Below are positions 944-30,909 of a DNA stretch of 35,352 bases, in pieces (the first letter of the stretch is position 1; each line of letters opens with the position of its first letter). The notes below the pieces were generated by a model. It did not search any database. It was not told the DNA's origin and saw only the letters and a program-made list of their open reading frames with translations. Source of the stretch: an uncultured Patescibacteria group bacterium (GTDB lineage Bacteria > Patescibacteriota > Minisyncoccia > Phycocordibacterales > UBA918); assembly GCA_934699595.1 (NCBI GenBank), contig CAKUWT010000001.1, forward strand, positions 419,033 to 454,384. The letters run 5' to 3'. The translations under genes and the position numbers were made by a program.

Positions 944-1285
944 CTACTCTTGATTATCTTCATTCACTTCAACTCTAGGCACAGCGGCACGAGTGTCGTA
1001 AGGTGAGAACAGGTTGTTCTTACCAACATTTTGTTCTGGTACCGGAGTCTCAAATGACTGCAAAAGACTGAAGCGAGGATCTTCGAAGATTCTAGTGTCT
1101 AATGTAATAGAACGTAATTCTGCCTGACGACTGATATAAACTTGAGTACGAGACAATAACTCTACTGAGACTGGGTTTGTCTCTAATGACAAAGCATCTC
1201 CTCCTCGCTGCATAAAGAAGTATGCTCCAGCAGCTAGCAGCAAGAGCAAGGTGAGAACAGTAAGAGTAATTTTAACTATCTGCAT
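944..1285 (-). CDS. Hypothetical membrane-anchored protein in the pilMNO-pilB operon (occupies the PilP-like position)
   Basis: 113-aa ORF with an N-terminal hydrophobic helix (LTVLTLLLLLAAGAYFF). It is tightly packed between the pilO-like gene and pilB. No recognisable catalytic motif. Confidence 0.5.
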   Translation of the reverse strand: MQIVKITLTVLTLLLLLAAGAYFFMQRGGDALSLETNPVSVELLSRTQVYISRQAELRSITLDTRIFEDPRFSLLQSFETPVPEQNVGKNNLFSPYDTRAAVPRVEVNEDNQE

Positions 1286-1294
1286 ATAAGATTC

Positions 1295-1897
1295 TTATTC
1301 ACTAATAATTTGACTATCACTTACTGATAATGATCGGCTGCTTTTGGTCTTCAAACTGTATACGTTGGCCGTGATTTCAAAGTCAATGCCCCCAGTATCA
1401 CTGGCTTCAATCATCAAATTAGCAATATCAAACTGATACTTATTTTTTTCTAGATTACGTAAATAATCTTTGATATTATCGTAAAAACCGTTGCCGCTCA
1501 CAATAAATTCGTGAGCTACTAGCTCCTCATCGTCCAAATTCTCAACATCATTATAGTTTATTACATCGTCAGCCTCTTCGTAAGTCAAACTTTCAATCAC
1601 CACTCCCGAGAGTTGGGCGATGTTCTTCAGGTCTTTCATGACACTAGCCGAATCCACCTCGTCAGGCAAATAGGTAATTAGATCTTGCTGCTTACTTGTA
1701 GGCACAGAATTAACTTGGGCCAACAGATTAGCTAGCTGGTCATTAACAGTCTTAACTTTCGTCAACTCTTGATTATACAAAGCAATATTATCTTGAGTGA
1801 CGCCAATTTCTTTAAGAGTAGGAACGATGTAGAGGAAAAAAATTGCTACAGAGATAGCCATCAGCGCAAATTTTGATATTACCGAAGAATCTTTCAT
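1295..1897 (-). CDS. pilO: PilO-like type IV pilus assembly protein
   Basis: 200 aa with an N-terminal TM helix followed by a coiled-coil-like segment (QDNIALYNQELTKVKTVNDQLANLL). It follows the pilM and pilN-like genes with a 3-nt spacing. Confidence 0.6.
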   Translation of the reverse strand: MKDSSVISKFALMAISVAIFFLYIVPTLKEIGVTQDNIALYNQELTKVKTVNDQLANLLAQVNSVPTSKQQDLITYLPDEVDSASVMKDLKNIAQLSGVVIESLTYEEADDVINYNDVENLDDEELVAHEFIVSGNGFYDNIKDYLRNLEKNKYQFDIANLMIEASDTGGIDFEITANVYSLKTKSSRSLSVSDSQIISE

Positions 1898-1900
1898 ACA

Positions 1901-2701
1901 CTAATCATTATTATCAACTTCTAAATGTTCACTGCTATCAGGAATTTGTTCATCATCAAATTCAAAGCCACTCTCTTCATCAAGCACCTCATCAGTATCA
2001 CTGATCGTAAATGTTTGCTGCTCCAAATCAGGGATGTAAGCAATATTACTAGGCTTTAGGTCAACCGTTAATGAGTAACTTACCTCATCGATGATGGCGG
2101 CAGATCCACCGTCAACTGCTTCGGTCGATCCAAAGCTAATTTCCCCAAAGACTGGACCGAGGACTGGGTCAATCTGCTGTCGATACGGACTCCGCTGAAA
2201 GATTAAAGCATCAATATTTGCTGCCACCACTTCACCAGTTAATCTGATACCAGCGTTACTCTTCTCGATCTCAATACTATTAAATCTGGCTGAGCGTACT
2301 GTACTCTCCTCAAGCTGTGTTAGTGCTTGCACCAAAGAGACGTGTTGCCCTACCAATTTACCCGTCTGTTTCAAACGACGATCAAAGCTGGTCACTCGAA
2401 GCATATCCTTATCACTAAAGCTGGTGGCGGCAGTGTCTAAATTGGCAACAGCTTGATTAAAAGTCTTATCGACGTAGCGTCCATAAAAAAAGACAAAGGC
2501 CGAAGCGAGGATGGTGGCTAAAAAAAGACCTGTACTGATTACTACCAACGGTATCACGCTAGTCTGGGCTCGTCTGCGCTTACTGGTCTTTTGCGAACTT
2601 TGTCTTGGAATAAAGGAACTTTGATTGGGGTTTTCTGGCATAAAGCAATTATAGCTTTGACTTGCTAAAAAATAAGCTACGTGCTGTGGACAGGTGGGCA
2701 A
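1901..2701 (-). CDS. pilN: PilN-like type IV pilus assembly protein (fimbrial assembly family)
   Basis: Short basic cytoplasmic N terminus, one TM helix (VIPLVVISTGLFLATILASAFVFF) and a periplasmic-type domain, immediately downstream of pilM. The track start at 2701 is TTG. An ATG at 2641 (MPENPNQ...) is an equally plausible start. Confidence 0.55.
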   Translation of the reverse strand: MPTCPQHVAYFLASQSYNCFMPENPNQSSFIPRQSSQKTSKRRRAQTSVIPLVVISTGLFLATILASAFVFFYGRYVDKTFNQAVANLDTAATSFSDKDMLRVTSFDRRLKQTGKLVGQHVSLVQALTQLEESTVRSARFNSIEIEKSNAGIRLTGEVVAANIDALIFQRSPYRQQIDPVLGPVFGEISFGSTEAVDGGSAAIIDEVSYSLTVDLKPSNIAYIPDLEQQTFTISDTDEVLDEESGFEFDDEQIPDSSEHLEVDNND

Positions 2702-2744
2702 GCACCCGTAAGAACTGAGGTGAAGATTCTACTTATCACCTATC

Positions 2745-3824
2745 TCACTCAAAATAGCGAAGGGCGGCACCGATGGCCGGAGTGAAGATTGTGCCAATTT
2801 CCTGAAGAGTATCAGCCATAAAAGCTGGGTACGCGACCTTGTCAAACGGCGTGGCAAAAATAACTTCTCGACTCATTCCCTCGTTCACAATTCTATCTAA
2901 ATCAGGAAAACTAGCCGCGCCACCGGTTAAGACAATCTGTTTCACCACCGCTCCAGAGCGCGCTTCGTACTCCTCCAGCACTTGTCGGAATTCGCGCAAG
3001 GAGCGCCCAAGACCAATTTCGGCTTGTCGAAAAGCTAACGGAAAATCAGCACTCTCCTTATCTAAACCTTGTTTCAAAATCTCAGCTTCAAGAAAACTAA
3101 GGTCTTTTTCTTTAGCTAAACGTATCGTCAGGTTACTACCTCCGTCCTTGACGCGATACATTCTTTGAAGCATCCCATCATGCACTATGTAGAACTTAGT
3201 AGTCTGAGCACCAATATCGATAATGGCTATGTCGGGGGTTCTGGCGGAATACAAACTCCGGATAGTGCTGAAACACTCAATCTCTGTCGGAGGTTTGGCG
3301 AAGTTAAGAGACTCCAGCAAGACTTTAAAGCGGTTAAGTGCATTATTTTGAATGGCTGCCACTAAAATATCTCGTGAGGTCTTACCGACCGCTGCCTTAG
3401 TATCCACCTCAGCCCAATCAAGTGTCACTTCAGAAATGGGGACAGGAATATACTTCCTCGCCTCTACTCGTACCCGTGAGGACACATCTTCTTTTTCCAG
3501 AGCCGGTAAAGACATTGTGGTCACAAAACTTGAGGCGAGCGGCATCGCAAAAACGGCATTTTGTGCTTTCACTGCCGACTCACGCAAAATATCGACCATC
3601 GCCTGTCTTTCCGCTTCCGATGATAACGACGCTGTTTCTCCCACCACCTTATCCTCATAGGGACCAAGTTGTAATTCGCCGTAAGTATTGAGTGTAATGA
3701 TACCGTTTTTATCTTGTAACTCAACGACCTTAATTGAGGACGATCCGATATCGATACCGACAACTCGACCGTCGTCAGTAGTTTTACTATTTGAGAATAT
3801 TGAAAGAAACTTTTCGAAGGCCAT
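2745..3824 (-). CDS. pilM: Type IV pilus assembly protein PilM (actin-like ATPase fold)
   Basis: 359 aa with VGIDIGSSSIKVVEL near the N terminus and a second phosphate-binding-like segment IAIIDIGAQTTKF, typical of PilM/FtsA-like proteins. The gene ends at TGA. Confidence 0.85.
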   Translation of the reverse strand: MAFEKFLSIFSNSKTTDDGRVVGIDIGSSSIKVVELQDKNGIITLNTYGELQLGPYEDKVVGETASLSSEAERQAMVDILRESAVKAQNAVFAMPLASSFVTTMSLPALEKEDVSSRVRVEARKYIPVPISEVTLDWAEVDTKAAVGKTSRDILVAAIQNNALNRFKVLLESLNFAKPPTEIECFSTIRSLYSARTPDIAIIDIGAQTTKFYIVHDGMLQRMYRVKDGGSNLTIRLAKEKDLSFLEAEILKQGLDKESADFPLAFRQAEIGLGRSLREFRQVLEEYEARSGAVVKQIVLTGGAASFPDLDRIVNEGMSREVIFATPFDKVAYPAFMADTLQEIGTIFTPAIGAALRYFE

Positions 3825-5919: not shown

Positions 5920-6050
5920 GGCGCTTATTTTACCATGATTTAAGATAAAATTATGTAACCGTAAGAACGGGGGTATATTATGTTAGAGGAAAAAACGTAC
6001 ATTGGGACAAGCTCAAGAGAATTGGCGCTAATGTTATGGAAATAGCAGCC

Positions 6051-6153
6051 AAAGAGGAGAATCTTAAAACAAATTAACGTTGCTCTATCCTCACATTTAA
6101 CTATTTATAAGATTAATCTATATTAACTCCTGCGTAGTAGCGACACCTCTTTT
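6051..6153 (-). promoter_or_regulatory. Candidate yybP-ykoY (Mn2+) type leader upstream of the TerC-family gene (weak match)
   Basis: The minus strand reads AAAGAGGTGTCGC...(about 90 nt)...AAGATTCTCCTCTTT. AAAGAGG and CCTCTTT can close a P1 helix around a 103-nt element. The 5' segment matches 10/13 of my recollection of the conserved AAAGGGGAGUAGC, and the 3' side resembles ..AAGACCUUU. TerC-family genes are a classic target of this riboswitch class. The L3 motif UUGACAUA is matched only poorly (TTAATATA). Confidence 0.3.
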
Positions 6154-6372
6154 ATCCGAAACAAAACAAAATATATACACCCGGGTAGATTGACTAGACT
6201 CAAGGATTCTAACTCAACTTGTCTAGACCACCCTCCATCCCCCAAATACCACAAAGGCCTTCACTTTTATTAAAATCCAACTAAGGTACTGCTCCTAGTT
6301 CAGGGCTAGGTCTTAATAACCATTTCTAAACTTTTGTTATACTTACCTACTGAAAAGTAGTTTGTTGTTACT

Positions 6373-7056
6373 ATGAGAGACTTCACCAACTCATTCCTCT
6401 ATAATTTCAAACGCTCTTTTGTCGGGCGTAATATTTTTTGGCATCTACTGGCCGTTCTCCTTACTGTCGTCATTACGGCTTCCAATTTAGACTGGCATTA
6501 TTTTCTTTCAGTACAAAACCAAACTCTTCACCAGCTTTTCTCTCTCGCTATTCCTGCCGGTTATATTATCCCTATTTTTCTACCACCAATCCTCATTGCT
6601 CTGGGCTGGTGGCGACGGGATAAAATTGCTGAAATTTACGGACTGGCTTTAATGCAAGCCGCGGCCGTCGGCTGGGTTATTTCCGCTATTTACAAAGCCT
6701 TCACCAACCGTGTTCCGCCAGATATTTTTGACCAACTGATCAATTACAGCCGCGAGTGAAACTTTGGCCTCCTAAAGCAAAGCGTCTACTGGGGCTGGCC
6801 CTCTTCCCATACTACGGTAGCTTTTGCTATGGTGGACACCCTCATCGTTCTTCTTGGTAAAAACCGCCCCCTCACCCGCTGGGTAGCTCTCGTCTATACT
6901 TTTTATATCGGCATCGGTATCTCTTTTAGCGCCCACTGGTTATCTGAATTTGTCGCCGGCATTATTATCGGTACCGTAACCGGCGTTACTGTCGGCCAAT
7001 GGTGGAAAGAACATTTACCGACCTCACCCACTGGCGAAGATACACCCCGGCTTTAA
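6373..7056 (+). pseudogene. PAP2-superfamily phosphatase-like membrane protein interrupted by an in-frame TGA (6757-6759)
   Basis: ORFs 6373-6759 and 6829-7056 share one frame. Reading through the TGA gives ...YKAFTNRVPPD...YSRE*NFGLLKQSVYWGWPSSHTTVAFAM...SAHWLSEFVAGIIIG. These are the K..R.P, PS(G/S)H and H...(D/E) PAP2 motif positions, spread across both halves. Confidence 0.6.
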
Positions 7057-7063
7057 TCAGCAT

Positions 7064-7083
7064 TACATAGGACGGTCCTATGT
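7064..7083. repeat. Palindrome tacataggacggtcctatgt (copy 1 of 2), probable hairpin/terminator
   Basis: 9-nt arms acataggac/gtcctatgt. A related copy at 7953-7972 has compensatory central changes. Confidence 0.6.
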
Positions 7084-7222
7084 CGCTGACAAGTACATCC
7101 ATGATATAACAGACAGGAGTAGCTCAAACTCCCCAAGGGTTTACACCCTTACTGTATTTCGAATGCGACGCTTTCCACCTATACTACTTGAAGTCGTAAA
7201 ATATTCTAACGTATAGCCCAAC

Positions 7223-7888
7223 CTACCGCCAATCAATCGCCACCCCACCTTGTCCCTCCAGGTATTTATTCGTCTCACTAAAGTGATGGTGGCCGTGGAA
7301 AAAGCGTGCCGATAGCGGTGACGGGTGTCCACTTTCTAGGACCAGGTTTTTAGTGCGGTCGATATGGGCGCCTTTTTGCTTAGCGTAGTTACCCCAGAGC
7401 AGATAGACAATCCCTTCCCGCTCGGCGTTCAGCTTGGTAATAACGGCATCGGTAAATTGTTCCCAGCCTTGTCCTTGGTGAGAAGCGGCCTCGTCCGCTC
7501 GGACGGTCAGGACGCTGTTTAACAGCAATACTCCCTGCTCCGCCCAGCGAGAAAGATCAGGAGATGGGTCTGGCTCAATACCGAGATCTTGCCTAATCTC
7601 TTTAAAAATATTGCGGAGCGAGGGCGGCGTAGCTACCCCTTCACTTACCGCAAAAGCTAAGCCGTTCGCCTGCCCCTCTCCATGGTAAGGATCTTGCCCC
7701 ACAATCACCACCCGCACTTGCGCAAACGGGCACAAATCAAAAGCTCGAAAAATATTTTTTGGTACTGGGTACACCACTTGACGCCCGTACTCCCCCTTAA
7801 CAAAATCTGTCAGTCTCGCCCAATATGGTGCGCGGAATTCTATCCCCAATGCTCGTCGCCAAGAGTCGTCAATTCGCACCGTTCTCAT
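7223..7888 (-). CDS. ung: Uracil-DNA glycosylase, family 1
   Basis: 221 aa with the GQDPYH water-activating loop (VIVGQDPYHGEGQANGLAF) and HPSPLS (ESGHPSPLSA). Confidence 0.9.
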   Translation of the reverse strand: MRTVRIDDSWRRALGIEFRAPYWARLTDFVKGEYGRQVVYPVPKNIFRAFDLCPFAQVRVVIVGQDPYHGEGQANGLAFAVSEGVATPPSLRNIFKEIRQDLGIEPDPSPDLSRWAEQGVLLLNSVLTVRADEAASHQGQGWEQFTDAVITKLNAEREGIVYLLWGNYAKQKGAHIDRTKNLVLESGHPSPLSARFFHGHHHFSETNKYLEGQGGVAIDWR

Positions 7889-7952
7889 AGTTAGGGTATT
7901 TTAGCATTTTTACCCAACCTACCGCAGCTGCGAAGAATTACCTTTCACACAA

Positions 7953-7972
7953 TACATAGGTCGGACCTATGT
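7953..7972. repeat. Palindrome tacataggtcggacctatgt (copy 2 of 2)
   Basis: Same outer arms as 7064-7083. The central GGAC.GTCC is changed to GGTC.GACC, so pairing is preserved. It lies between the tRNA-Thr 3' end and the ung start. Confidence 0.6.
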
Positions 7973-8020
7973 GTAAAGATCTATATAAACCGAGGCGACT
8001 TATCCTGCCCATGCTACATG

Positions 8021-8093
8021 AGCCACCTCGCAGGATTGAACTGCGGACCTTGTCGTTACGAGTGACACGCTCTACCAACTGAGCTAAGGTGGC
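8021..8093 (-). tRNA. tRNA-Thr (anticodon CGU)
   Basis: Minus strand gccacct ta gctc agttggta gagc g tgtca CTCGTAA cgaca aggtc cgcag ttcaatc ctgcg aggtggc t. This is a canonical 73-nt cloverleaf with U33, A37 and an A31.C39 mismatch. CCA is not encoded. Confidence 0.8.
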
Positions 8094-8234
8094 TTGCTCA
8101 AGTCCGATTACTATAACAAAATTTAGCGGTAAATTTAAGTTTAACCAGAGAGACCGTCTAGTATTAGAAAAACTATTTTTTTATGGTAAACTGACGCTAC
8201 TTATGGTTTTATCATAAGTAGAAAGTTTATATTG

Positions 8235-8257
8235 ATGAAGACGTGGCTGAGTGTTCA
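8235..8257 (+). repeat. Fragment copy of the tRNA-Ser 5' end (3 upstream nt plus positions 1 to about 20)
   Basis: atgaagacgtggctgagtgttca versus atggagacgtggctgagtggtcg at 8353-8375. The core agacgtggctgagtg (15 nt) is identical. Confidence 0.7.
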
Positions 8258-8354
8258 ATGAAGAAAGAGGCTTTTAAAGCAACTATTCTGAATTAATGAT
8301 TAATACTTAACCATACCTCTTGCTGTTAAAAGGGTTGTAATGTAAAGCATACAT

Positions 8355-8441
8355 GGAGACGTGGCTGAGTGGTCGAAAGCACCTCACTGCTAACGAGGCA
8401 GGGTCTAAAAGCCCTCGGAGGTTCGAATCCTCTCGTCTCCG
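8355..8441 (+). tRNA. tRNA-Ser (anticodon GCU), class II with long variable arm
   Basis: ggagacg tg gctgagtggtcgaaagc a cctca CTGCTAA cgagg cagggtctaaaagccctc ggagg ttcgaat cctct cgtctcc g. CCA is not encoded. Confidence 0.9.
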
Positions 8442-8506
8442 CTAAGTCTGTGACTAAATATAATTAAGTTACAAAATCTTAAAAACAAACCGCACTCTGT
8501 TTGGGC

Positions 8507-8531
8507 AAAAACAGTCTGGGAGACTGTTTTT
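8507..8531 (+). terminator. Intrinsic terminator after tRNA-Ser
   Basis: aaaaacagtct ggg agactgttttt. Perfect hairpin with flanking A and T runs. Confidence 0.7.
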
Positions 8532-8668
8532 GAGAATTAGTACCACCAGGGCATTTCTATTTTTATAGTCGGACTAGAGTCCTCCTTAAAAATAAGTCAA
8601 AAGGTTGCCAGCTATTTTGCGAAGCGATAGCGAGTAGAAATAGCGACAACCTGTACTGAACATGTAAT

Positions 8669-8690
8669 GTTCGAATCCTCTCGTCTCCGC
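8669..8690 (+). repeat. Exact 22-nt copy of the tRNA-Ser 3' end (T-loop to discriminator+1), here followed by CA so that it reads ...ctccGCCA
   Basis: gttcgaatcctctcgtctccgc is identical to 8421-8442. The 5' strand of the T stem is absent, so this is a fragment and not a gene. Confidence 0.8.
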
Positions 8691-8698
8691 CAAATAGG

Positions 8699-8729
8699 AA
8701 AACCGCCCGAGTACCACTTGGGCGGTTTT
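8699..8729. terminator. Bidirectional intrinsic terminator (serves the GNAT gene on the minus strand)
   Basis: aaaaccgcccgagt acc acttgggcggtttt. 10-bp stem with one G.U pair and A/T runs on both sides. Confidence 0.7.
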
Positions 8730-8751
8730 GCGATCCGCAAGGATTCATTCA

Positions 8752-9198
8752 TCAGAGGGTAATTGACGCCTTGAGGCGATACACGTTCGTATCATATCGC
8801 TCAAAGCCCAACTTTTGGTACAGATGATTGGCAGCCGCTCGACCCGACGAAGAGGTCAGATCAATCTGACGTGCCTCGTGAAAATCAAAGCCGACTTCAA
8901 TAAGTTGCTCCATAATTCTCTGGGCGACACCCTGACCGCGATAATCCTTAAGCACCACAACATCGTGGATGACGCACTCAGTAGCGCCGAGTACGTACAG
9001 GGGACAGATGGTCCCCATGCCGATAATCTGGCCAGCAGTGGTGGTGGCAATCACCACAGTAGTATCACTGTAGTTGAGAAGCTTCTCAATATCCGCCTCA
9101 CAAACCTGACGTTCCGAACTCGGCAGCAGGGACAACAACCGATTGATGTCATCCACAATACAGTTGTCCATGTCGAGAATATCAATCGCATATTCCAT
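8752..9198 (-). CDS. GNAT family N-acetyltransferase
   Basis: Acetyl-CoA binding motif A VVVLKDYRGQGVAQRIMEQL. The track ORF starts at GTG 9240, but the ATG at 9198 (MEYAIDILD...) is preceded by GGAGGAAAATGAG and is the likelier start. Confidence 0.8.
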   Translation of the reverse strand: MEYAIDILDMDNCIVDDINRLLSLLPSSERQVCEADIEKLLNYSDTTVVIATTTAGQIIGMGTICPLYVLGATECVIHDVVVLKDYRGQGVAQRIMEQLIEVGFDFHEARQIDLTSSSGRAAANHLYQKLGFERYDTNVYRLKASITL

Positions 9199-9256
9199 CT
9201 CATTTTCCTCCAGATCTCTATCTGTGGCTAAAAATACCACAAAAGTTTCTATTTTG

Positions 9257-10420
9257 CTACTTACCCTTCGTCACCGCGCTCGAGACTGCCTTTACCAAGC
9301 CTGGGGTATCAATCGGAGGAATAACATTCTCGGCAGTCGGTTTTTTTACCAATCCAGCCAATTTTTTAGCCGCTTTTAGTTTCATCTCAGTCGTAATAGC
9401 AGACACTTTTTTGTCTAGAGCCCCACGGAAAATCCCTGGAAAAACCAGCGAGTTATTAATCTGATTTGGAAAATCTGAGCGACCAGTTGCCACCACCGCC
9501 GCCCCAGCTCGCTTAGCATCTTCCGGCATAATTTCCGGAATCGGATTAGCTAGAGCAAAAACAATGGCTTTGTCTGCCATAGTTTCAATATGAGCCTTCG
9601 CAATCGTACCTGGACCCGAAACACCAATCAGAGCGTCTGCTCCAGCTACCGCGGTCAACACATCGCCTTGAGTTTTTTCTGGATTAGTCATTTCTGCCAA
9701 CTCTTTTTTATAGCCTTTTAAGTCGGGTCTACCGCTGTAAATCACGCCGCGGCTATCCGAAACAATTACCTCCTTAACTCCAGCCTGGTACAGTAACTGA
9801 GTAACAGCACGGCCGGCCGCGCCGGCTCCTACAATTACCACCTTCATTTGTTCTAGTTTTTTCCCCACTACTTTGGCAGCGTTGATCAAACCAGCCACCA
9901 CTACAATGGCAGTACCATGCTGATCATCATGGAAAACGGGGATATCCAACTCCTTCTTTAATCTTTCTTCGATAATAAAACACTGTGGGGCGGCGATATC
10001 TTCCAGATTAATTCCACCAAATCCAGGAGCAATGGCTTTTACGACCGCAATAATCTCTTCCGGCTCGTGGACACTAAGCACCAGTGGCCAAGCATCAATA
10101 TCCGCCATAGCTTTAAAAATATTCGCCTTCCCCTCCATCACCGGCAAGGCTCCGAGCGGACCGATATTTCCGAGACCCAGCACCGCCGAACCGTCAGACA
10201 CCACCGCTACTGAGTTACCCTTACTGGTATACTGATGCGCTTGGCTTGGATGCTTTGCCAAATGTGTCGAGACCGCTGCTACTCCCGGAGTATAGAGTGT
10301 GCTCCAGTCGTCTTTGGTTTTTAGCGGCGCTTTATTAGTGAGGGTAATTTTACCCCGCAACTTTTTATGTGTACTTAGAGCTAGTTTGTTATAGTCCTTC
10401 TTTACTGGTGATTTTGCCAT
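9257..10420 (-). CDS. NAD(P)-dependent malic enzyme (short, about 390-aa type)
   Basis: 387 aa. LRGKITL...LYTPGVA N-terminal region, a Rossmann motif VVIVGAGAAGRA and the ANPIPEI segment are typical of the small bacterial malic enzymes. Confidence 0.85.
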   Translation of the reverse strand: MAKSPVKKDYNKLALSTHKKLRGKITLTNKAPLKTKDDWSTLYTPGVAAVSTHLAKHPSQAHQYTSKGNSVAVVSDGSAVLGLGNIGPLGALPVMEGKANIFKAMADIDAWPLVLSVHEPEEIIAVVKAIAPGFGGINLEDIAAPQCFIIEERLKKELDIPVFHDDQHGTAIVVVAGLINAAKVVGKKLEQMKVVIVGAGAAGRAVTQLLYQAGVKEVIVSDSRGVIYSGRPDLKGYKKELAEMTNPEKTQGDVLTAVAGADALIGVSGPGTIAKAHIETMADKAIVFALANPIPEIMPEDAKRAGAAVVATGRSDFPNQINNSLVFPGIFRGALDKKVSAITTEMKLKAAKKLAGLVKKPTAENVIPPIDTPGLVKAVSSAVTKGK

Positions 10421-14893: not shown

Positions 14894-14967
14894 CCGCATG
14901 TAGCTCAGTTGGTTAGAGCACGGAGCTTATACCTCCGTGGTCCTTGGTTCGAATCCAAGCATGCGGA
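14894..14967 (+). tRNA. tRNA-Ile with anticodon UAU (reads AUA)
   Basis: ccgcatg ta gctc agttggtta gagc a cggag CTTATAC ctccg tggtc cttgg ttcgaat ccaag catgcgg a. Fully canonical cloverleaf with U8, G18G19, TTC loop, U33, A37 and a C1-G72 pair. Confidence 0.85.
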
Positions 14968-14973
14968 CTAGTT

Positions 14974-20298: not shown

Positions 20299-20435
20299 TG
20301 GAGAACAGCGCAACTTAGTGGCCGTTTCCTTGGAAACGGCCACTTTTTTATTTACCGTCCGTCATAAAATAAAACCGGCCTCATTCAGCACCACGACGGT
20401 CAAACAACTATGTTATACTGCCCGATAAATTGACC

Positions 20436-20852
20436 ATGCAGCAACCAGCTCTAGAAAATTTCCTCCGCAAAAAAACTGCCTCCGGCTTAGGATTGTTTAC
20501 AAAAATACCGTTCACTAAAGGTGATTTTGTCCTGGAATACACTGGCGAAAAAATCAGTGACGCTGAGGCCGACCGTCGCGGTGGCCGCTACCTCTTCCGC
20601 CTCAATAAAGACTGGCTACTAGATGGTAAAGATCGTTCTCATCTGGGTCGCTATCTCAACCATAGTTGTAGACCAAACTGCTACGCTGAGATTGATGAAA
20701 ATGAAGAGCATATTTATTTCTACGCCAAGAAGAAAATCCGCGCTGGTGAAGAGCTTACTTTTAACTATGGCAAGGAGTACTGGCGAGAGTACATTGAGCC
20801 ATACGGCTGTAAATGTGCCACCTGTCTAGCCAATACTGGCCGTCCCAACTAA
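20436..20852 (+). CDS. SET-domain protein-lysine methyltransferase-like protein
   Basis: GLGLFT..., YLNHSCRPNC, ELTFNYG and a Cys-rich post-SET CKCATC. The track start at 20430 is TTG, and an ATG follows at 20436. Confidence 0.85.
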   Translation: MQQPALENFLRKKTASGLGLFTKIPFTKGDFVLEYTGEKISDAEADRRGGRYLFRLNKDWLLDGKDRSHLGRYLNHSCRPNCYAEIDENEEHIYFYAKKKIRAGEELTFNYGKEYWREYIEPYGCKCATCLANTGRPN

Positions 20853-23795: not shown

Positions 23796-23865
23796 AATTT
23801 AGTATTTTCCACTGATGTCTTTTTAGTATAGCAGACTGGTGTCACCAATTAGATACTGAGTAATA

Positions 23866-23897
23866 GAAAAACCAAACGCAGGAGCGTTTGGTTTTTC
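23866..23897. terminator. Bidirectional intrinsic terminator
   Basis: gaaaaaccaaacgc agga gcgtttggtttttc. 14-bp perfect stem. Confidence 0.75.
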
Positions 23898-24130
23898 TAT
23901 AGGAGTCACAAAGCGCATGCTCCTAGAAGAGACTAGGTGGGCACCTTTTCCAAAAATGGTCTGAAATCTCTTGCGAGTTCTCATATATTTTTGAGACTAC
24001 GGGCAGCCCTGAGCATACAATTAAGCGGAACATGCGAATTGCGACTCCTGTTACTATATTAACACCAATTAGAAAATAAAAAAGTCTCCTTAACTTGACG
24101 AGTTCCCACCGAGAGGACTCTTATAAATAT

Positions 24131-27100
24131 TTATTTACCCAACAGACCAAGGAAACCTTGCAAAACAGCAATAAGTTCTGTAACTAAAGTACGATTAGCC
24201 TCAGTCACAATCACCTGGGGACGATTAGTGGTAGAAAGATTCTTCTTGAATAAATCAGGGAACTTAGCTTCTAAGCGAGCCGCCTCGTCTTGATTACCCT
24301 GACTCCTTAATAGTGAGACCCGTGATAAAACTGAGAGACTTCCAATAACTCGTTTTTTGGCTGCAGGAGTTGTCTCTGGTTCAGAATCTGGATCAGGCTG
24401 AGAAGACTGCGGAGTCACACTGCTGGAAGGCAAGGAGCTTGGCGACGCACCGACATCATTGATAGCTATAACGGTAAACGTGTAAGTAGTACCATTACTT
24501 AATCCGGTGACCGTAAGGGGTGAACCGGATCCTGTGACAGTGCGACCCTCAGGATTACTGGTAACAATATAGCTAGTAATGGGACTGCCACCGTCGTCTA
24601 ACGGCGGGTTAAAACTAATGGTAGCATTACCATCCCCGGGAGTAGCGATGACATCACTGGGCGCACCAGGAAATACTGGAACTGGAGTTGTTACAGTAAT
24701 CATTAACGACTGCGTGGCCGTACCCCCCAGTCCAGTACAGGAAATTTCGTAAGTGGTGGTTGTGGTCGGACTGACTACCTGGCTACCGCTGGAGTCAGTG
24801 GAGCTAGTCCAAGACGCGGCACAAGAAGTAGCATTAGTACTACTCCAGTTAAGAGTGGTGTTATCTCCAACAATAATAGGATTACTACTAGCCGAAAGGT
24901 TAATAGCTGGAACTGGGTCAGGAGCCGCATTTACTACCACCGTGGCACTTTGAGTATCAGTGCCACCTAAACCTATACAAGTTAATGTATAAGTATAATT
25001 ACCAGAAGTAAGCACTCCAGTACTCTGACTACCACTAACAGATTGGGACCCACTCCAAGATCCACTTGCTGTACACTCGGTAGCATTTACAGTACTCCAA
25101 TTAAGGGTGGTGGCACTACCACTCTCTATGACACTATCTTCAGTCGAAATGCTAATAGTGGGAGCTAGGTAACCAACACTAACCGTAGTGGTAGCTATAG
25201 CTGTCCCACCAGGGCCAGTACAGGAAATTCCGTAGGTAGTGGTGGCGGTAGGGCTCACTGCTTGACTACCGCTCGAGTTAGTGGAACTAGTCCACCCCTC
25301 ATCAGCAGCACAGACTGTAGCATTGGTACTACTCCAAGAAAGAGTAGCCGATTCTCCTAAGTTAATATCTGTCGGACTAGCGTTGAAACTGACGGTTGGA
25401 GTCGGATGGTTTACCGTTACAGTTACTGACTTACTAACTGGCCCGTAATCTCCAGTACAATTTAAAGTATAGGTAGAAGTAGTAATCGGTGCCAGACCTT
25501 CGTTACCACTAGTTTCTTTTGCGCCAGCCCAGTCTCCAGACGCGACACATCCATCTACCAGGTCCGCACTCCAAGTGAGAGTCACCGTGTCTCCGGCAGT
25601 AATTTCGGGAGAGGAGGAGATAAAATCAAGAGTTGGTGTCGGTACAGAAGCGTCAAAAAATTTGACACGGTTACCAGTCTCCTCGACTACCAATAAGTAA
25701 TTATTATCAGGATCGTAAGTCAAACCAGTAGGAGTATTTAATTTATCCTGAGCATCACCAGCCGTATTAGACACCCAGTCACTCTGACCGAGGACATAGC
25801 TGGCATTCATACCGTTCGTGATAGTACCTGAAAGGTCGAATGCCTTGACGCGGTGACTAAATTTTTCTGAGACGAATAGGCGTCTGTGTTCGGAGTCATA
25901 AGCCAGGCCGTTCGGACTGCTCAACTTGTCCTGAGCATGACCGGCTGCTGACCCTGACCAGTCCACTTGACCTAGGACATAGCTAGCGGGCATACCGTTC
26001 GTGATTCCACCTGAGAGATCGAAGACCTTAACACGGTTGCCACCCGCTTCAGCAACAAAAAGATAGTCGACAGCTGAATCAAAAACCAAACCTCGTGGAT
26101 TAAACAGTTCACTTTGAGTATTACCACTAGCTGATCCAGTCCAGTCTGACTGCCCCAGCACATAGCTCGCATTCATACCATTCGTGATACCGCTGGAGAG
26201 ATCGAAGACTTTGACGCGGTTGCCGCTATTCTCAGCCACAAATAACAACTCACTATTAGCATCAAACTCTAGACCCATTGGATACTTAAGCTTATCCTGA
26301 CTATCTCCAGAAGTTCCTGATGTCCAATCAACCTGCCCGAGCACATAGCTCGCATTCATACCGTTAGTAATGCCGCTGGAGAGGTCAAAGACTTTGACGC
26401 GATTGCCACTGGTTTCAGAAACAAAAAGATACTTATTGGCCGCATCGAAAGCCAATGCCTCCGGATAATATAAACCTGATTGGGTACTAGTAGCTAAGGC
26501 GCTATTAAAGTCAGGTTGTCCTAGAACATAATCTGGAAGGTAGTCTATCAATTTATTATTACTGTCTAGCTGATGAATAATAACCCGATGACTGCTTCTA
26601 TCAGTAATAAAGAGTCTGTGATTATCTAAGTCATAAGTAACTCCTGTAGGGCTTGAAAAACCTCTCATATTGGGTCCGTTGTAGGAACGATAGGAGCTGC
26701 CACTTTCACCTTTTGAATAGTCAATGATCAGGTTGTCAATATCAGAAAACTGCCCCATCAAATCAGATGCGGGCATATTGTTAATAATTCCTTCTGAGAG
26801 ATCGAAGATTTTGACACGGTGGGCGCCCTCAGCAACGAACAAGGTTGAAGAAACAGGGTCGAAAGCTACATCGGTTGGGCCATTTAGTCCGTTTTGTGTA
26901 TTACCGACAGCCAAACTTGTCCAATCTGTTTGTCCCAAAACGTAACTGGCATTCATACCGTTGGTGATGCCGCTGGAGAGGTCGAAGACTTTGACGCGGT
27001 TACCCGAACTCTCAGCAACAAATAGTCGGTTGTTATTATCTAGAGTTAATCCTGTTGGTTGATTTAGTTTGTCCTGAGCATTACCAGCGGCAAACCCCGT

Positions 27101-28036
27101 CCAGTCAGACTGTCCCAGCACATAGCTGGCATTCATACCGTTCGTGATAGTACCTGAAAGGTCGAAGATTTTGATGCGGTTAGACTCAGCCACAAATAAC
27201 CTTGAAGTGGCAGGATCAAATACCAAACCTCTGGGTTGAGTAAATCGATTTTGAGCATTAGCATTAGTACTACCCGTCCAGTCTGACTGTCCCAGCACAT
27301 AGCTCGCATTCATACCGTTCGTGATAGTACCTGAAAGATCGAAGATTTTGACACGGTGGGCGCCCTCACTGACAAACAGTCGTGAAGTGGCTTCGTCATA
27401 GGCGAGACTGTTTGGATTAGATAATTTATTTTGAGCATCACCAGCTGTATTAGACACCCAGTCACTCTGGCCTAACACGTAACTGGCATTCATACCGTTC
27501 GTGATTCCTCCTGAGAGATCAAAGACTTTGACTCGGTTAGCATTAACCCCCTCAACAACATAGAGGTATTTTTTTGCCTGATCATATTCGATATCAAGAG
27601 GAGATCTCAATCCAGACTGCGTATCGTTTGCAGCTATGGTAAAGAAGTCTGTCTGTCCAAGGACATAGTCTGCCTTATAATCCAGAAGTTGATTATTGTT
27701 GTCTAATTCGTGTATAAGAATGCGGTTGCTGTTAGTATCACAAATATATAAATAATGATTAATTGAGTCTAGATATGTGCAACCAATAGCCCAATAAGTA
27801 CTTTCATTTGCGCCTCCATTAAAACTTCTGCCAGTATACGAAGGAGTAGTATATCCCCCGTTTTCATACTGTCCAATCAGATCAATGGCTGGAGCACCAT
27901 TGCTAATTTCTGCTTCGGCTTGATTAAAGTTAATCCCAGAATAAATAACTGATAAAATTAATAATAGCAAACCAACTATCCCAAAAATGATTCGCTTTGG
28001 TGACCGGACTTTTCGAGTGACAAGGACAAGACTCAT
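24131..28036 (-). CDS. Giant secreted/surface protein: signal-anchor, two six-bladed NHL-like beta-propellers, four Ig-like repeats, one fibronectin type III domain, Pro/Asp/Ser linker and a helical C-terminal domain of about 75 aa
   Basis: 1301 aa. The N terminus is KVRSPKRIIFGIVGLLLLILSVIYSGI...AEA. There are 12 repeats of about 59-61 aa of the type NRVKVFDLSGGITNGMNASYVLGQSDW...L..P.GL.-D....LFVAE, and 4 repeats of about 80 aa of the type T.G...TL.WSS.NAT.C.AS..WS.S...SGSQ...P...TTY.L.C.G.GG. The Fn3 domain reads PGAPSDVIATPGDGNATISFNPPLDDGGSPITSYIV...GLSNGTTYTFTVIAINDVG. Confidence 0.9.
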   Translation of the reverse strand: MSLVLVTRKVRSPKRIIFGIVGLLLLILSVIYSGINFNQAEAEISNGAPAIDLIGQYENGGYTTPSYTGRSFNGGANESTYWAIGCTYLDSINHYLYICDTNSNRILIHELDNNNQLLDYKADYVLGQTDFFTIAANDTQSGLRSPLDIEYDQAKKYLYVVEGVNANRVKVFDLSGGITNGMNASYVLGQSDWVSNTAGDAQNKLSNPNSLAYDEATSRLFVSEGAHRVKIFDLSGTITNGMNASYVLGQSDWTGSTNANAQNRFTQPRGLVFDPATSRLFVAESNRIKIFDLSGTITNGMNASYVLGQSDWTGFAAGNAQDKLNQPTGLTLDNNNRLFVAESSGNRVKVFDLSSGITNGMNASYVLGQTDWTSLAVGNTQNGLNGPTDVAFDPVSSTLFVAEGAHRVKIFDLSEGIINNMPASDLMGQFSDIDNLIIDYSKGESGSSYRSYNGPNMRGFSSPTGVTYDLDNHRLFITDRSSHRVIIHQLDSNNKLIDYLPDYVLGQPDFNSALATSTQSGLYYPEALAFDAANKYLFVSETSGNRVKVFDLSSGITNGMNASYVLGQVDWTSGTSGDSQDKLKYPMGLEFDANSELLFVAENSGNRVKVFDLSSGITNGMNASYVLGQSDWTGSASGNTQSELFNPRGLVFDSAVDYLFVAEAGGNRVKVFDLSGGITNGMPASYVLGQVDWSGSAAGHAQDKLSSPNGLAYDSEHRRLFVSEKFSHRVKAFDLSGTITNGMNASYVLGQSDWVSNTAGDAQDKLNTPTGLTYDPDNNYLLVVEETGNRVKFFDASVPTPTLDFISSSPEITAGDTVTLTWSADLVDGCVASGDWAGAKETSGNEGLAPITTSTYTLNCTGDYGPVSKSVTVTVNHPTPTVSFNASPTDINLGESATLSWSSTNATVCAADEGWTSSTNSSGSQAVSPTATTTYGISCTGPGGTAIATTTVSVGYLAPTISISTEDSVIESGSATTLNWSTVNATECTASGSWSGSQSVSGSQSTGVLTSGNYTYTLTCIGLGGTDTQSATVVVNAAPDPVPAINLSASSNPIIVGDNTTLNWSSTNATSCAASWTSSTDSSGSQVVSPTTTTTYEISCTGLGGTATQSLMITVTTPVPVFPGAPSDVIATPGDGNATISFNPPLDDGGSPITSYIVTSNPEGRTVTGSGSPLTVTGLSNGTTYTFTVIAINDVGASPSSLPSSSVTPQSSQPDPDSEPETTPAAKKRVIGSLSVLSRVSLLRSQGNQDEAARLEAKFPDLFKKNLSTTNRPQVIVTEANRTLVTELIAVLQGFLGLLGK
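24676..25645 (-). repeat. Four tandem Ig-like coding repeats of about 240 nt
   Basis: Recurring ...TL[ST]WS[SA]...C.A......SGS[QE]...TTY.[LI].C.G.GG...TV.V units seen in the translation. Confidence 0.7.
25650..27800 (-). repeat. Twelve tandem NHL-like coding repeats, period about 177-183 nt, with near-identical 40-70 nt DNA cores
   Basis: The core gcattcataccgttcgtgatagtacctgaaaggtcgaa recurs at 25803, 27129 and (with 1 mismatch) 27308. Related cores occur at about 25985, 26168, 26351, 26947 and 27487. Confidence 0.85.
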
Positions 28037-28094: not shown

Positions 28095-28136
28095 AAAAAC
28101 AAGAGTTAACCGCAGGGCGCCGTCGGCGCCCTGCTG
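28095..28136 (-). terminator. Intrinsic terminator after ndk
   Basis: gcagggcgcc gtc ggcgccctgc hairpin. On the minus strand ...cttgtttttcc follows. Confidence 0.6.
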
Positions 28137-28165
28137 TTAATTCTTTTCCACAAAGAAAGTTTTAA

Positions 28166-28771
28166 CTAGTCCGGAGTACCATCAAGGTTGATGTCGTACA
28201 TAATCCGCTCTTGAGCTGTCACGTACTCGTTGAGCTCTTCGGGTTTAAACCATAGTGCCATCTCCCGATCAGCTTCTTCAACGGATTCTGAACAATGGAT
28301 TAAGTTGCGGACAGCGCGATTCTCGTAGGAAGAATGAGCATAAGAATCAAGGGTAAAATCTCCTCGAATAGTACCAACGTCTGAGGTGGTAGGCTCAGTT
28401 GTGCCGACTAATTTAGTTACCACAGCGACAGCTTGATTCCCTTCCCAAACCATTGCCACCACTGGTGCCACTGTCATATAGTTCACAATAGTACGAATAA
28501 TATCTTTTCCATATTCAATTGGCTCACGATCAATGGGGCGGCCTTGGGACTTCAAATCCTCAACAATCCTAGTCCCCTTACTAAGGAACCATTCATCATC
28601 TTTATTATAGTGTTTGAGTAATGTCTCCTGATCAGGAACCACCATCTTCATACCAACACACTTTAGACCAACACGTTCAAATCGACTAATCACTTCTCCA
28701 ATGAGAGATCGTTGGACAGTGTCGGGCTTCAGCAACACAAGGGTCTGTTCTTGGTTTGGATGTTTAATCAT
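28166..28771 (-). CDS. ndk: Nucleoside diphosphate kinase (with an internal insertion of about 35-40 aa and a C-terminal extension)
   Basis: TLVLLKPDTVQRSLIGEVISRFERVGLK, GTIRGDF, and the catalytic His in NLIHCSES. ATG 28771 (MIKHPNQEQ) is preferred over the upstream alternative start at 28924, which would overlap a terminator hairpin. Confidence 0.85.
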   Translation of the reverse strand: MIKHPNQEQTLVLLKPDTVQRSLIGEVISRFERVGLKCVGMKMVVPDQETLLKHYNKDDEWFLSKGTRIVEDLKSQGRPIDREPIEYGKDIIRTIVNYMTVAPVVAMVWEGNQAVAVVTKLVGTTEPTTSDVGTIRGDFTLDSYAHSSYENRAVRNLIHCSESVEEADREMALWFKPEELNEYVTAQERIMYDINLDGTPD

Positions 28772-28834
28772 AAAATAATGTCTATTTATTAACTTAATAA
28801 TCTGAGTTGCTGGCAGTATAGCCCAGTTTGTCTT

Positions 28835-28878
28835 AAAAAAAAAGCCCGCAAGCCACCTCACCATGAGGGACTGCGGGC
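28835..28878 (-). terminator. Intrinsic terminator in the map-ndk spacer
   Basis: On the minus strand: GCCCGCA GTCCCTCATGGTGAGGTGGCT TGCGGGC followed by TTTTTTTTT. Confidence 0.6.
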
Positions 28879-28952
28879 AGTTGCGGTCGAGGGACAGTGG
28901 TACGTCCAGCTGGTGACCAACCAACCAGACGCGTATATACTACCAAAAAATC

Positions 28953-29724: not shown

Positions 29725-30321
29725 TTATAGGTTTAAAGCTCTAATAATAATATGCTGTACCTCATTAACATTCAGAGACCCATCAATATCAATCACCCGC
29801 GTGGCTGGCCGAGTTCGATAAAAATCTAGAACAGGCAGAGTTTGCTCCCGGTACCAAGCGAGACGCTTCTCAATACCCGCAGCAGTATCATCCGCCCGGC
29901 CACGACCAGCCATCCGTTTCAAAATAATCTTTTCTGGTGTATCTAAGTTTATCACCACCAACTCCCTTCTCCGATAGAACTGCCATACCCCCTCCATTAA
30001 TTCCGCCTCGGCTAAATGTCGTGGGGAACCTTCAATTAGGAAATGCTTCTTGTCGTCTCCCTGTTTTCGCAATAATTCTGTCCAGAGGCTGGCGGCCAGA
30101 AACAAGGGCTGCAACTCTCCATTGACAATATCCTCCTGTACTTTTTTGGTACTATAGGTCTTTTCACCAGCAAAAAATTCCCGAAATAAATTACCAGTTT
30201 GAATTTCTAAAATGCCTGCCGAGTTCTCAGTAGCTTCCAAAACTGATCGTAAGAGGCCTATTTGGGTCCCTTTGCCACTGCCTTGGGGTCCGATAAAAAT
30301 AACCGTTAATGGGTTTGTCAT
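29725..30321 (-). CDS. adk: Adenylate kinase (short-lid type)
   Basis: P-loop IGPQGSGKGTQ and lid/arginine segment MAGRGRADDTAAGIEKRLAWY. 198 aa. Confidence 0.85.
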   Translation of the reverse strand: MTNPLTVIFIGPQGSGKGTQIGLLRSVLEATENSAGILEIQTGNLFREFFAGEKTYSTKKVQEDIVNGELQPLFLAASLWTELLRKQGDDKKHFLIEGSPRHLAEAELMEGVWQFYRRRELVVINLDTPEKIILKRMAGRGRADDTAAGIEKRLAWYREQTLPVLDFYRTRPATRVIDIDGSLNVNEVQHIIIRALNL

Positions 30322-30333
30322 AATGCGAATTGA

Positions 30334-30909
30334 TTAATTGTTAGTACTTAAATGAGAATTAATTTCGGCTTGTACCATCTCGGGGGTGAGCGATCCATCA
30401 ATATTCACCAACTTACCGGTACTGGCAAAAATATTAATCGACTCTGCTGTAAATTGATGATACTCGGCTAAGCGCTTTTCAATAATCTCTGGAACATCCA
30501 CCTGATCTCGAGCACGCGCCTGACTCCGTACACGCACTAAATCATCACTGATATCAAGGTTAAAAATGATGTATGGTCGCTGTAGCCACTCATGAATTTC
30601 GATAAACAATTTAGCCTCATCAGGTTTCTTAGCAACGGCCTCAAAAATAATCCGTTCCTGACTGTATTTATTGACCAAAGCGTCGGTCATCCAGTACGAA
30701 GCAATCCACTCCGGGATTAGCAAACCCCCTTCGTAGCAAGTCTTAACATTCTGACCAAATGGAGTAGGCTCTTTTATGGCGGAGCGAACATTATCACCAT
30801 TAGAATACATCACTCCCCCGTAATCCTTAATAATCCTTTCTGCTTGAGTACCTTTACCGGAGGCAATTTTGCCCATCAGGACAATACTTTGGTAGGGAGT
30901 TTTTGACAT
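30334..30909 (-). CDS. Adenylate kinase-like NMP kinase paralog
   Basis: P-loop MGKIASGKGTQAERI, LIPEWIA and RARDQVDVPEIIEKRLAEY. It is divergent from the neighbouring adk, and its substrate cannot be assigned from sequence. Confidence 0.65.
   Translation of the reverse strand: MSKTPYQSIVLMGKIASGKGTQAERIIKDYGGVMYSNGDNVRSAIKEPTPFGQNVKTCYEGGLLIPEWIASYWMTDALVNKYSQERIIFEAVAKKPDEAKLFIEIHEWLQRPYIIFNLDISDDLVRVRSQARARDQVDVPEIIEKRLAEYHQFTAESINIFASTGKLVNIDGSLTPEMVQAEINSHLSTNN

Follow-up and report, generated by a model that had tools for sequence, protein, structure and literature searches.

A predicted exported protein with a double NHL beta-propeller and an Ig-like stalk, encoded by a gene inserted at a conserved gene block of a Patescibacteria group bacterium

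I analysed a stretch of 35,352 nucleotides (nt) from an uncultured Patescibacteria group bacterium (GenBank assembly GCA_934699595.1, contig CAKUWT010000001.1, positions 419,033 to 454,384 of the forward strand), hereafter called the window. Its most conspicuous element is a minus-strand gene for a protein of 1301 amino acids (aa). The open reading frame (ORF) at 24131-28036 is intact and is the largest in the window, the runners-up encoding 739 and 695 aa. It spans 3906 of the 35352 bases, which agrees with the share of about 11% given in an initial annotation made from the sequence alone. The base composition of the gene is unremarkable. The coding sequence and the parts assigned to the protein are as follows, with the basis of each assignment in brackets; Ig stands for immunoglobulin and Fn3 for fibronectin type III.

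24131-28036, minus strand: coding sequence of the 1301-aa protein (ATG start; stop codon at 24131-24133)
27908-28036, minus strand: signal peptide or signal anchor, aa 1-43 (hydropathy scan)
26762-27889, minus strand: first six-bladed NHL beta-propeller, blades 1-6, aa ~50-425 (Pfam, repeats, AlphaFold2)
25652-26761, minus strand: second six-bladed NHL beta-propeller, blades 7-12, aa ~426-795 (Pfam, repeats, AlphaFold2)
24671-25639, minus strand: four Ig-like units, aa 800-1122 (alignment of relatives, AlphaFold model, Foldseek)
24407-24670, minus strand: Fn3 domain, aa 1123-1210 (Pfam fn3, titin matches)
24353-24406, minus strand: linker rich in Ser, Pro, Asp and Glu, aa 1211-1228 (sequence; predicted local distance difference test score, pLDDT, <50)
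24134-24352, minus strand: conserved helical tail, aa 1229-1301, 73 aa (model; comparison with the protein P0365)

The N-terminus has a basic n-region (R8, K9, R11, K14, R15), a hydrophobic core at aa 16-35, and the residues AEA before E44. This segment is predicted to be either a Sec signal peptide or a signal anchor. By the A-x-A rule, cleavage would occur after AEA.

It was found that twelve repeat units follow. Their [VL][LM]GQ anchors lie at aa 53, 125, 187, 247, 306, and 366 in the first set of six and at aa 426, 504, 565, 626, 687, and 748 in the second. The blade spacing is 59-62 aa, but the units that open the two sets are divergent and longer, at 72 and 78 aa. Units 1 and 2 are joined by a link whose form is particular to each set (IHELDNNNQLLDY vs IHQLDSNNKLIDY), and the other units are canonical. 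The Pfam NHL model (PF01436) scored 92.9 bits against a cut-off of 20 (E 5.2e-27), and phmmer returned matches to the solved NHL domains of SOQ1, NHLRC2, TRIM71, Thin, and Brat (E down to 6e-15). In an AlphaFold2 model of aa 40-800 built with 41 homologues (pLDDT 92.8; predicted template modelling score, pTM, 0.85), there are 12 four-strand blades in two sets of six. A Foldseek search with this model returned tandem propellers. Thus, the 2 x 6 NHL blades proposed in the initial annotation were recovered by Pfam, by matches to solved domains, and by structure prediction, the blade number being the point for which Pfam and structure prediction had been suggested as a check. Judging from the secondary structure and general propeller topology, a long conserved loop (LSGxITNGMNAS) lies between strands three and four of the blade, and a variable 19-residue loop (GQxDW...AQ..L) leads from the fourth strand to the next blade. 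The variable loops would then lie on the canonical "top" face, which usually binds the ligand.

Pfam also matched Arylesterase (E 1.8e-20), SGL (5.9e-13), and Lactonase (9.9e-10). Such matches may suggest a secreted enzyme with lactonase-, arylesterase-, or gluconolactonase-like propellers, or a scaffold for the breakdown of a host envelope polymer. However, they span single blades only (for example, aa 457-487 on profile positions 50-80 of 86) and thus reflect shared blade sequence rather than a full catalytic domain. Moreover, the top NCBIfam match, ScyF, reached 74.8 bits against a cut-off of 350, and the nearest solved relatives by sequence are NHL domains, mostly of regulatory and RNA-binding proteins (TRIM71, Brat, Thin). 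I therefore regard an enzymatic role as very unlikely.

Behind the propellers lie four Ig-like units of about 80 aa, with limits at approximately aa 808-886, 887-966, 967-1049, and 1050-1122. Each of them has one Cys pair (830/860, 909/939, 988/1020, and 1072/1100), the two residues being 28-32 residues apart. These Cys are invariant or nearly so in an alignment of 37 relatives, and all ten Cys of the protein occur in positional pairs. The units were modelled as beta-sandwiches with a pLDDT of 90-97 over aa 800-1120, and Foldseek matched the stalk to Ig arrays in PDB with E from 1e-13 to 1e-9. No Pfam model matches the Ig-like units, DUF5979 reaching only E 0.12. The next domain is matched by Pfam Fn3 (PF00041) with 50.4 bits against a cut-off of 25 (E 2.7e-13), profile positions 2-82 of 84 being aligned to aa 1125-1205, and the region also matches Fn3 domains of titin by sequence. 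Both the Ig-like units with their Cys pairs and the Fn3 domain had been read from the translation before, and both readings stand.

The Cys-pair Ig-like unit itself is widespread. It was found in more than 2000 proteins of a large collection, and many of the listed matches lack any Pfam annotation. Its consensus is ...TLTWSSxNATSCTASGxWSGxKxxSGSxSTGxLxxxTTYTLTCTGxGGSAxQSxTVTV.

The tail is predicted to form four helices. When it was searched against 1.84 billion representative proteins, one convincing relative was found, namely P0365, a protein of 1235 aa encoded at 6001-9708 of an ENA metagenome contig (L039) from a small genome with a different genomic context. Over its last 76 residues, P0365 shares 65% identity with the tail and stops at the same position; a similar linker and a run of Cys-pair Ig-like units (38-45% identity) come before. 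In contrast, the head of P0365 is entirely different, consisting of a right-handed beta-helix with PKD and Laminin_G_3 domains, and P0365 lacks an Fn3 domain. Since P0365 has both the stalk and the tail behind another head, the two parts seem to be a common chassis onto which different heads are mounted. Conservation is higher in the tail than in the stalk (65% vs 38-45% identity); the tail thus very likely has its own function, which may be envelope attachment or assembly.

Other explanations of the tail matches were rejected. The tail-coding regions of the two genes show no DNA similarity, and hence nothing points to the tail having been transferred recently between the two genomes. The tail matches P0364, P0366, and P0367 are TPR or other repeat proteins aligned in many stretches, and they were taken as helical-repeat noise. 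A weak match (P0072) pointed to a truncated PG_binding_1 domain; however, no continuation exists in any frame past the stop codon, and the P0365 tail ends at the same position, which rules out truncation.

At the DNA level, several blades share repeats, some of which are listed here.

25794-25840: 47-nt exact repeat, blade 12 copy, encoding FDLSGTITNGMNASYV
27120-27166: 47-nt exact repeat, blade 5 copy
27285-27337: 53-nt repeat with one mismatch, blade 4 copy; its partner at 27108-27160 lies in the adjacent blade 5, 177 nt off
25749-25786 and 27432-27469: two copies of a 38-nt tract that differ at one base, over the otherwise variable loop QSDWVSNTAGDAQ in blades 12 and 3

In addition, a 32-nt exact core is common to blades 12, 5, and 4 (25803, 27129, and 27306), and a 33-nt sequence at 26799 recurs exactly at 27336. 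The other 24 kb of the window have no direct repeat longer than 22 nt. The initial annotation had described cores of 40-70 nt that are identical or differ by one base. Such cores are present at the coordinates it named, but the upper end was overstated: the longest with one mismatch is 53 nt, and longer inter-blade matches need two mismatches at 67 nt and three at 79 nt. Whole blades are only 60-71% identical in DNA, and Tandem Repeats Finder found no tandem array in the gene.

Do these repeats record past exchange between blades? For the eight canonical blades, 114 polymorphic sites were entered into a Sawyer-type run test with a global permutation p. The longest signals were a run of 18 matching sites between blades 5 and 12 (p ~0.001) and one of 15 sites between blades 3 and 12 (p ~0.012). 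Blade 12 is thus a mosaic, because its conserved core matches blade 5, whereas its otherwise variable loop QSDWVSNTAGDAQ shares 37 of 38 nt with blade 3. The 38-nt tract at 25749-25786 likely marks a gene-conversion tract. Where two blades have the same amino acid, the codons of blades 4 and 5 are identical much more often than codon usage predicts (25 vs 13.5 expected), and blade pairs 9/11 (10 vs 13.7) and 2/8 (8 vs 12.5) are at expectation. Furthermore, the canonical blades show 64-72% protein identity to their best partner within the protein, whereas same-position blades in the 41 homologues, which have the same 2 x 6 layout, are 40-50% identical on average. A higher identity within the protein than between homologues is a signature of concerted evolution. 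Taken together, the sequence comparisons indicate that the blades have been partly homogenised by past intragenic gene conversion.

Longer exact inter-blade repeats than those of the window gene were observed in P0018 and P0028 (L002 6001-12600 and L004 6001-11664), whose genes lie between GroEL and RF1. The exact repeats are 103, 85, and 69 nt in one of them and 75 nt in the other. These two positional orthologues differ in length (2199 vs 1887 aa), and a stretch of about 1 kb upstream of the shorter is free of gene calls.

The signature of a target of a diversity-generating retroelement (DGR), a template/variable repeat pair differing at adenines, was not found, and a reverse transcriptase was not seen among the window ORFs examined in a non-exhaustive scan. 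The stalk repeats 24717-24811 and 25200-25294 (79% identical), the only long diverged pair, were considered as a DGR target and rejected, as they differ by all kinds of substitution.

Is the exchange still going on? It is conceivable that the protein is a fast-varying adhesin, in which recombination between blade cores leads to in-frame loss, gain, or conversion of blades within populations and alters binding specificity or antigenicity. The in-frame repeats (47, 33, and 32 nt exact, and 53 nt with one mismatch), the signals of past conversion, and the longer identical repeats of homologous genes are in line with this idea. In Escherichia coli, RecA-dependent exchange has a minimum of about 25 nt, which the repeats of this gene exceed. 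On the other hand, three contigs of NCBI and ENA origin, one of them in ENA assembly ERZ27286916, encode the identical 1301-aa protein, and its 90%-identity cluster has no other full-length sequence (two members of 42 and 37 aa were set aside for want of visible similarity to the 1301-aa protein). The blades, 60-71% identical in DNA, do not form an array. Among the listed homologues, the commonest layout is the double propeller (10-12 blades detected), the larger ones having about 18, 24, and 30 blades. Since the counts thus cluster near multiples of six (12, 18, 24, and 30), the family seems to change by whole propellers rather than by single blades. A crossover at the 47-nt pair would delete seven blades and leave five, which misfits the six-blade unit of the family. 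Therefore, I consider present-day variation of this kind quite doubtful. In other words, of the claim that the gene is recombination-prone, the part on past blade exchange is borne out by the run test and the blade identities, but the part on present-day gain and loss of blades is not.

It was next of interest how the gene sits among its neighbours, which are housekeeping genes. On its 5′ side lie the genes for SecY, two adenylate-kinase-family proteins, methionine aminopeptidase (Map), and Ndk, and on its 3′ side those for a beta-CASP protein of the metallo-beta-lactamase fold, L20, and IF3. For beta-CASP, Ndk, and Map, the identity to proteins of metagenome-assembled genomes (MAGs) labelled Paceibacteria, Kaiserbacteria, Parcubacteria, and Minisyncoccia is 58-81%, and neighbouring genes reach 66-81% with Paceibacteria and Kaiserbacteria MAGs. 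These matches indicate a bacterium of the Candidate Phyla Radiation (CPR)/Patescibacteria, of the Paceibacteria type, and the earlier guess of an epibiont-type organism is consistent with them. The intergenic elements on the two sides of the 1301-aa gene are as follows.

28101-28145: GC-rich palindrome between ndk and the 1301-aa gene, read as the ndk terminator
24070-24118 (about), minus strand: weak hairpins followed by UUUUUUAUUUU, just past the stop codon; the only candidate terminator of the 1301-aa gene itself
24056-24067, minus strand: extended -10-like box of a small RNA (sRNA) gene, the -10-like box proper being at 24056-24062
23902-24048, minus strand: 147-nt structured sRNA gene, separate from the 1301-aa gene, in the 335-nt spacer before the beta-CASP gene
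23863-23900, minus strand: sRNA terminator, a perfect 17-bp hairpin

It had been proposed that the 1301-aa gene has its own terminators on both sides. A weak hairpin and U-run indeed follow its stop codon, but the palindrome at 28101-28145 follows ndk and the hairpin at 23863-23900 ends the sRNA gene.

I compared the loci around the closest beta-CASP homologues and those of 31 species-representative genomes located via the conserved sRNA motif, 34 loci in total. Wherever the available sequence reaches, the gene order map-ndk-sRNA-beta-CASP is kept in all 34 Paceibacteria/Kaiserbacteria loci. In none of these syntenic loci is an NHL gene present (0/34), and tblastn with the 1301-aa protein gave nothing at E <1e-8. 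Since all 34 related loci lack it, the 1301-aa gene is an accessory, lineage-specific insertion between the ndk terminator and the sRNA promoter. No close relatives of the 1301-aa protein were found in the genome and metagenome contig collections. P0018 and P0028 are the best full-length matches (44-48% identity); they were rejected as orthologues on account of their GroES-GroEL-[gene]-RF1 context.

Other insertions were seen in the compared loci. In L037, a gene for a 656-aa subtilase with Fn3 domains (1429-3399, minus strand) is inserted between map and ndk. Thus, exported-protein genes seem to have entered the end of the conserved operon on more than one occasion. Where L037 has the subtilase gene, L027 has 5.8 kb of inserted small genes.

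More than 1000 homologues were found, and all those with a source name belong to the CPR. Their C-terminal partners include PG_binding_1, SLH, SH3, Fn3, He_PIG, and HATPase_c. By sequence, the 1301-aa protein is a new addition to a very large family of uncharacterised CPR surface proteins. The wall-binding C-termini of homologues suggest an orientation with the C-terminus towards the cell and the head away from it. Could the protein simply be part of a structural envelope or an S-layer-like coat without a specific ligand? It is large and rich in beta-repeats, its Ser/Thr/Asn content is 30%, some homologues have SLH domains, and a Deinococcus S-layer protein is among the fold matches of the stalk (rank 41). 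However, a core component would be expected to be conserved, and the gene is absent at the locus in 34/34 related genomes; moreover, the protein has no SLH or other lattice-forming domain. A coat function is thus improbable, and I give it little weight.

About 10 of the top 120 homologues fuse the same double propeller to HATPase_c and are named histidine kinases by their source. Because the same head serves as the outer part of these kinases, the head is probably a ligand-binding module. The fusions would also suit an extracellular sensor or receptor, in which a signal, either soluble or on a surface, is picked up by the double propeller and relayed via partner proteins. A parallel exists in EsrA of Schaalia odontolytica (Actinomycetota), in which a beta-propeller sits on an Ig-like filament and which is a proposed threat sensor (PMC13622651). 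The 1301-aa protein, however, lacks a kinase, a transmembrane signalling module, and any cytoplasmic portion beyond the signal segment, and its housekeeping neighbours include no signalling partners. A sensor role is therefore unlikely, although I would place it ahead of an enzyme or a coat.

With moderate confidence, I read the 1301-aa protein as an exported modular surface protein whose stalked double propeller, with a reach of about 20 nm, would bind a ligand that is probably on another cell, a partner or host. Binding outside the cell is in keeping with the N-terminal signal, the ten positionally paired Cys, the Ig/Fn3 stalk, whose Ig-like units resemble extracellular Ig arrays in fold, and the anchored or sensor homologues. 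An adhesin or host-contact role, as suggested in the initial annotation, is plausible from this architecture. Ig-like, PKD, and PG-binding exported proteins are among the most expressed genes of unknown function in co-cultures of Paceibacteria and archaea, and host adhesion has been proposed for them (PMC10936435).

The mode of action may be pictured as follows. The signal peptide would be cleaved after AEA. The tail would hold the protein to the envelope or assemble it, and a stalk of five beta-sandwiches, ~18-20 nm long (at ~3.5-4 nm per domain), would project the double propeller from the cell. The propellers may bind a ligand via the variable 19-residue inter-blade loops, the ligand most likely being a glycan or protein on the surface of the partner or host cell. 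Inter-blade conversion would occasionally move these loops, on an evolutionary time scale and not as a fast switch.

Several points weigh against this reading. The Fn3 domain and the tail were modelled at low confidence, the last tail helix is only borderline hydrophobic, and the role given to the tail is a guess. A Pfam search and a regular-expression scan found no known anchor to wall or membrane in the protein, with PG_binding (PF01471), SLH, LPXTG, and lipobox all absent. The top-face placement of the variable loops comes from general propeller topology, not from coordinates. If the N-terminal segment were an uncleaved anchor, the propellers would sit by the membrane with the stalk outward, and the model would be reversed. 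Finally, a search of the full-text literature gave nothing relevant on NHL-repeat proteins of CPR/Patescibacteria.

To my knowledge, the cultivated CPR bacteria are all attached to other microbes, and almost nothing is known of their host recognition beyond type IV pili. With its exported binding-type architecture, its presence in one lineage only, and putative binding loops shuffled between blades, the gene is a reasonable candidate for host recognition. The lineage-specific insertion, the evidence for blade conversion, and the shared stalk-tail chassis are additions to what was first read from the sequence. The value of the find is limited by the size of the family (>1000 homologues), whose members are functionally uncharacterised. 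A more general scheme may be imagined, in which surface proteins of the CPR lineage use an exchangeable Ig-stalk/tail chassis with varied heads, the double propeller sets host specificity, and inter-blade conversion, including the transfer of top-face loops from one propeller to the other, retunes it. I hold this scheme to be a speculative one and rather unlikely as a whole.

The sRNA gene next to the insertion was also analysed. The 335-nt spacer before the beta-CASP gene folds far better than shuffled sequence (z = -8.0). The 147-nt sRNA occurs between ndk and the beta-CASP gene in 34 further loci of Paceibacteria/Kaiserbacteria. A promoter-like box and a terminator accompany each copy, and the terminators differ in sequence. 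When 29 of the sequences were aligned, the 37 consensus pairs proved to be 98.5% paired, with compensatory changes in 19 of them; the covariation score is 0.345 vs 0.153 in shuffles and 0.05-0.08 in slid controls. The predicted shape has an 18-bp closing stem, an 18-nt AU-rich single strand facing a small hairpin, and an inner stem-loop. This rod with a bubble recalls 6S RNA, a resemblance in shape only. No Rfam family, 6S RNA included, matched at gathering scores. No match was obtained either with E up to 10 (queries of 551 nt and 158 nt) or with E up to 1 for eight other loci. A search of the full-text literature for 6S RNA in CPR/Patescibacteria gave nothing relevant.

The remaining window encodes RecG, FtsH, malic enzyme, PilM, TerC, UDG, SmpB, tmRNA, and three tRNAs. 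A few of its features deserve mention. The adenylate-kinase-family genes form a tandem pair after secY (29725-30321 and 30334-30909, minus strand), and the pair is kept in loci L005-L007. The longest ndk ORF (28166-28924, minus strand; 252 aa, TTG start) is probably too long: the ndk called on the source contig has 201 aa, the homologues have about 200 aa, and the likely start is an internal ATG before MIKHPNQEQ. A PilM-type type IV pilus assembly gene and the small ORFs beside it lie at 944-3824 (minus strand). A SET-domain protein is encoded at 20430-20852 (plus strand), and SET is present in relatives too. ARAGORN called a tRNA-Ile gene with the anticodon TAT (UAU) at 14894-14968 (plus strand). 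Such a tRNA-Ile is unusual in bacteria, most of which decode AUA via a modified CAU anticodon. The final 22 nt of the tRNA-Ser(GCT) gene (GTTCGAATCCTCTCGTCTCCGC, 8421-8442) have an exact second copy 248 nt downstream at 8669-8690. This duplication looks like an attachment-site remnant of an integrated element, now only ~226 nt.

How does the 1301-aa protein compare with known systems? It resembles the NHL propellers of SOQ1, NHLRC2, TRIM71/LIN-41, Brat, and Thin in motif (P.GlayD, lfVad, nRV.vFd), in having four strands per blade, and in having six blades per propeller. However, the solved NHL examples are single propellers of mostly intracellular and eukaryotic proteins, while here tandem propellers form the N-terminal part of a putatively exported bacterial protein. 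The blades of 59-62 aa with the long conserved loop LSGxITNGMNAS also differ from the solved examples. Within the family, P0036 (named "peptidoglycan-binding protein [Candidatus Paceibacterota]"), P0037, P0043, and P0047 have the N-terminal double propeller and its 2 x 6 layout in common with the 1301-aa protein, the propellers being 44-49% identical over ~58% of the query. Proteins of the P0036 type end in PG_binding_1, SLH, or SH3, whereas the 1301-aa protein has Ig-like units, Fn3, and a rare helical tail instead.

The top structural match of the stalk is GhpA, the grappling-hook protein of Aureispira (PDB 9g8b, 9flx, and 9flu; E 7.5e-13), with 18-20% identity. Both are rods of Ig-like domains, although GhpA is much larger (residue numbers >5000) and has no NHL head. 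Over the whole model the TM-scores reach only 0.22-0.31, as the domains are oriented differently to one another in the two proteins.

Propellers on the cell surface are known from both sides of a CPR-host contact. In the Saccharibacterium TM7x, the pilin PilX2 has a beta-propeller and is needed for efficient host binding (PMC11623550). EsrA, in contrast, is on the host side and is a proposed sensor with MoxR/vWA partners. The propellers of EsrA and PilX2 belong to the WD40 and RCC1 classes and not to NHL, and that of PilX2 is seven-bladed. The likeness to the 1301-aa protein is one of architecture: like it, EsrA combines a Sec signal with a beta-propeller at the N-terminus and a filament made up of Ig-like repeats (PMC13622651).

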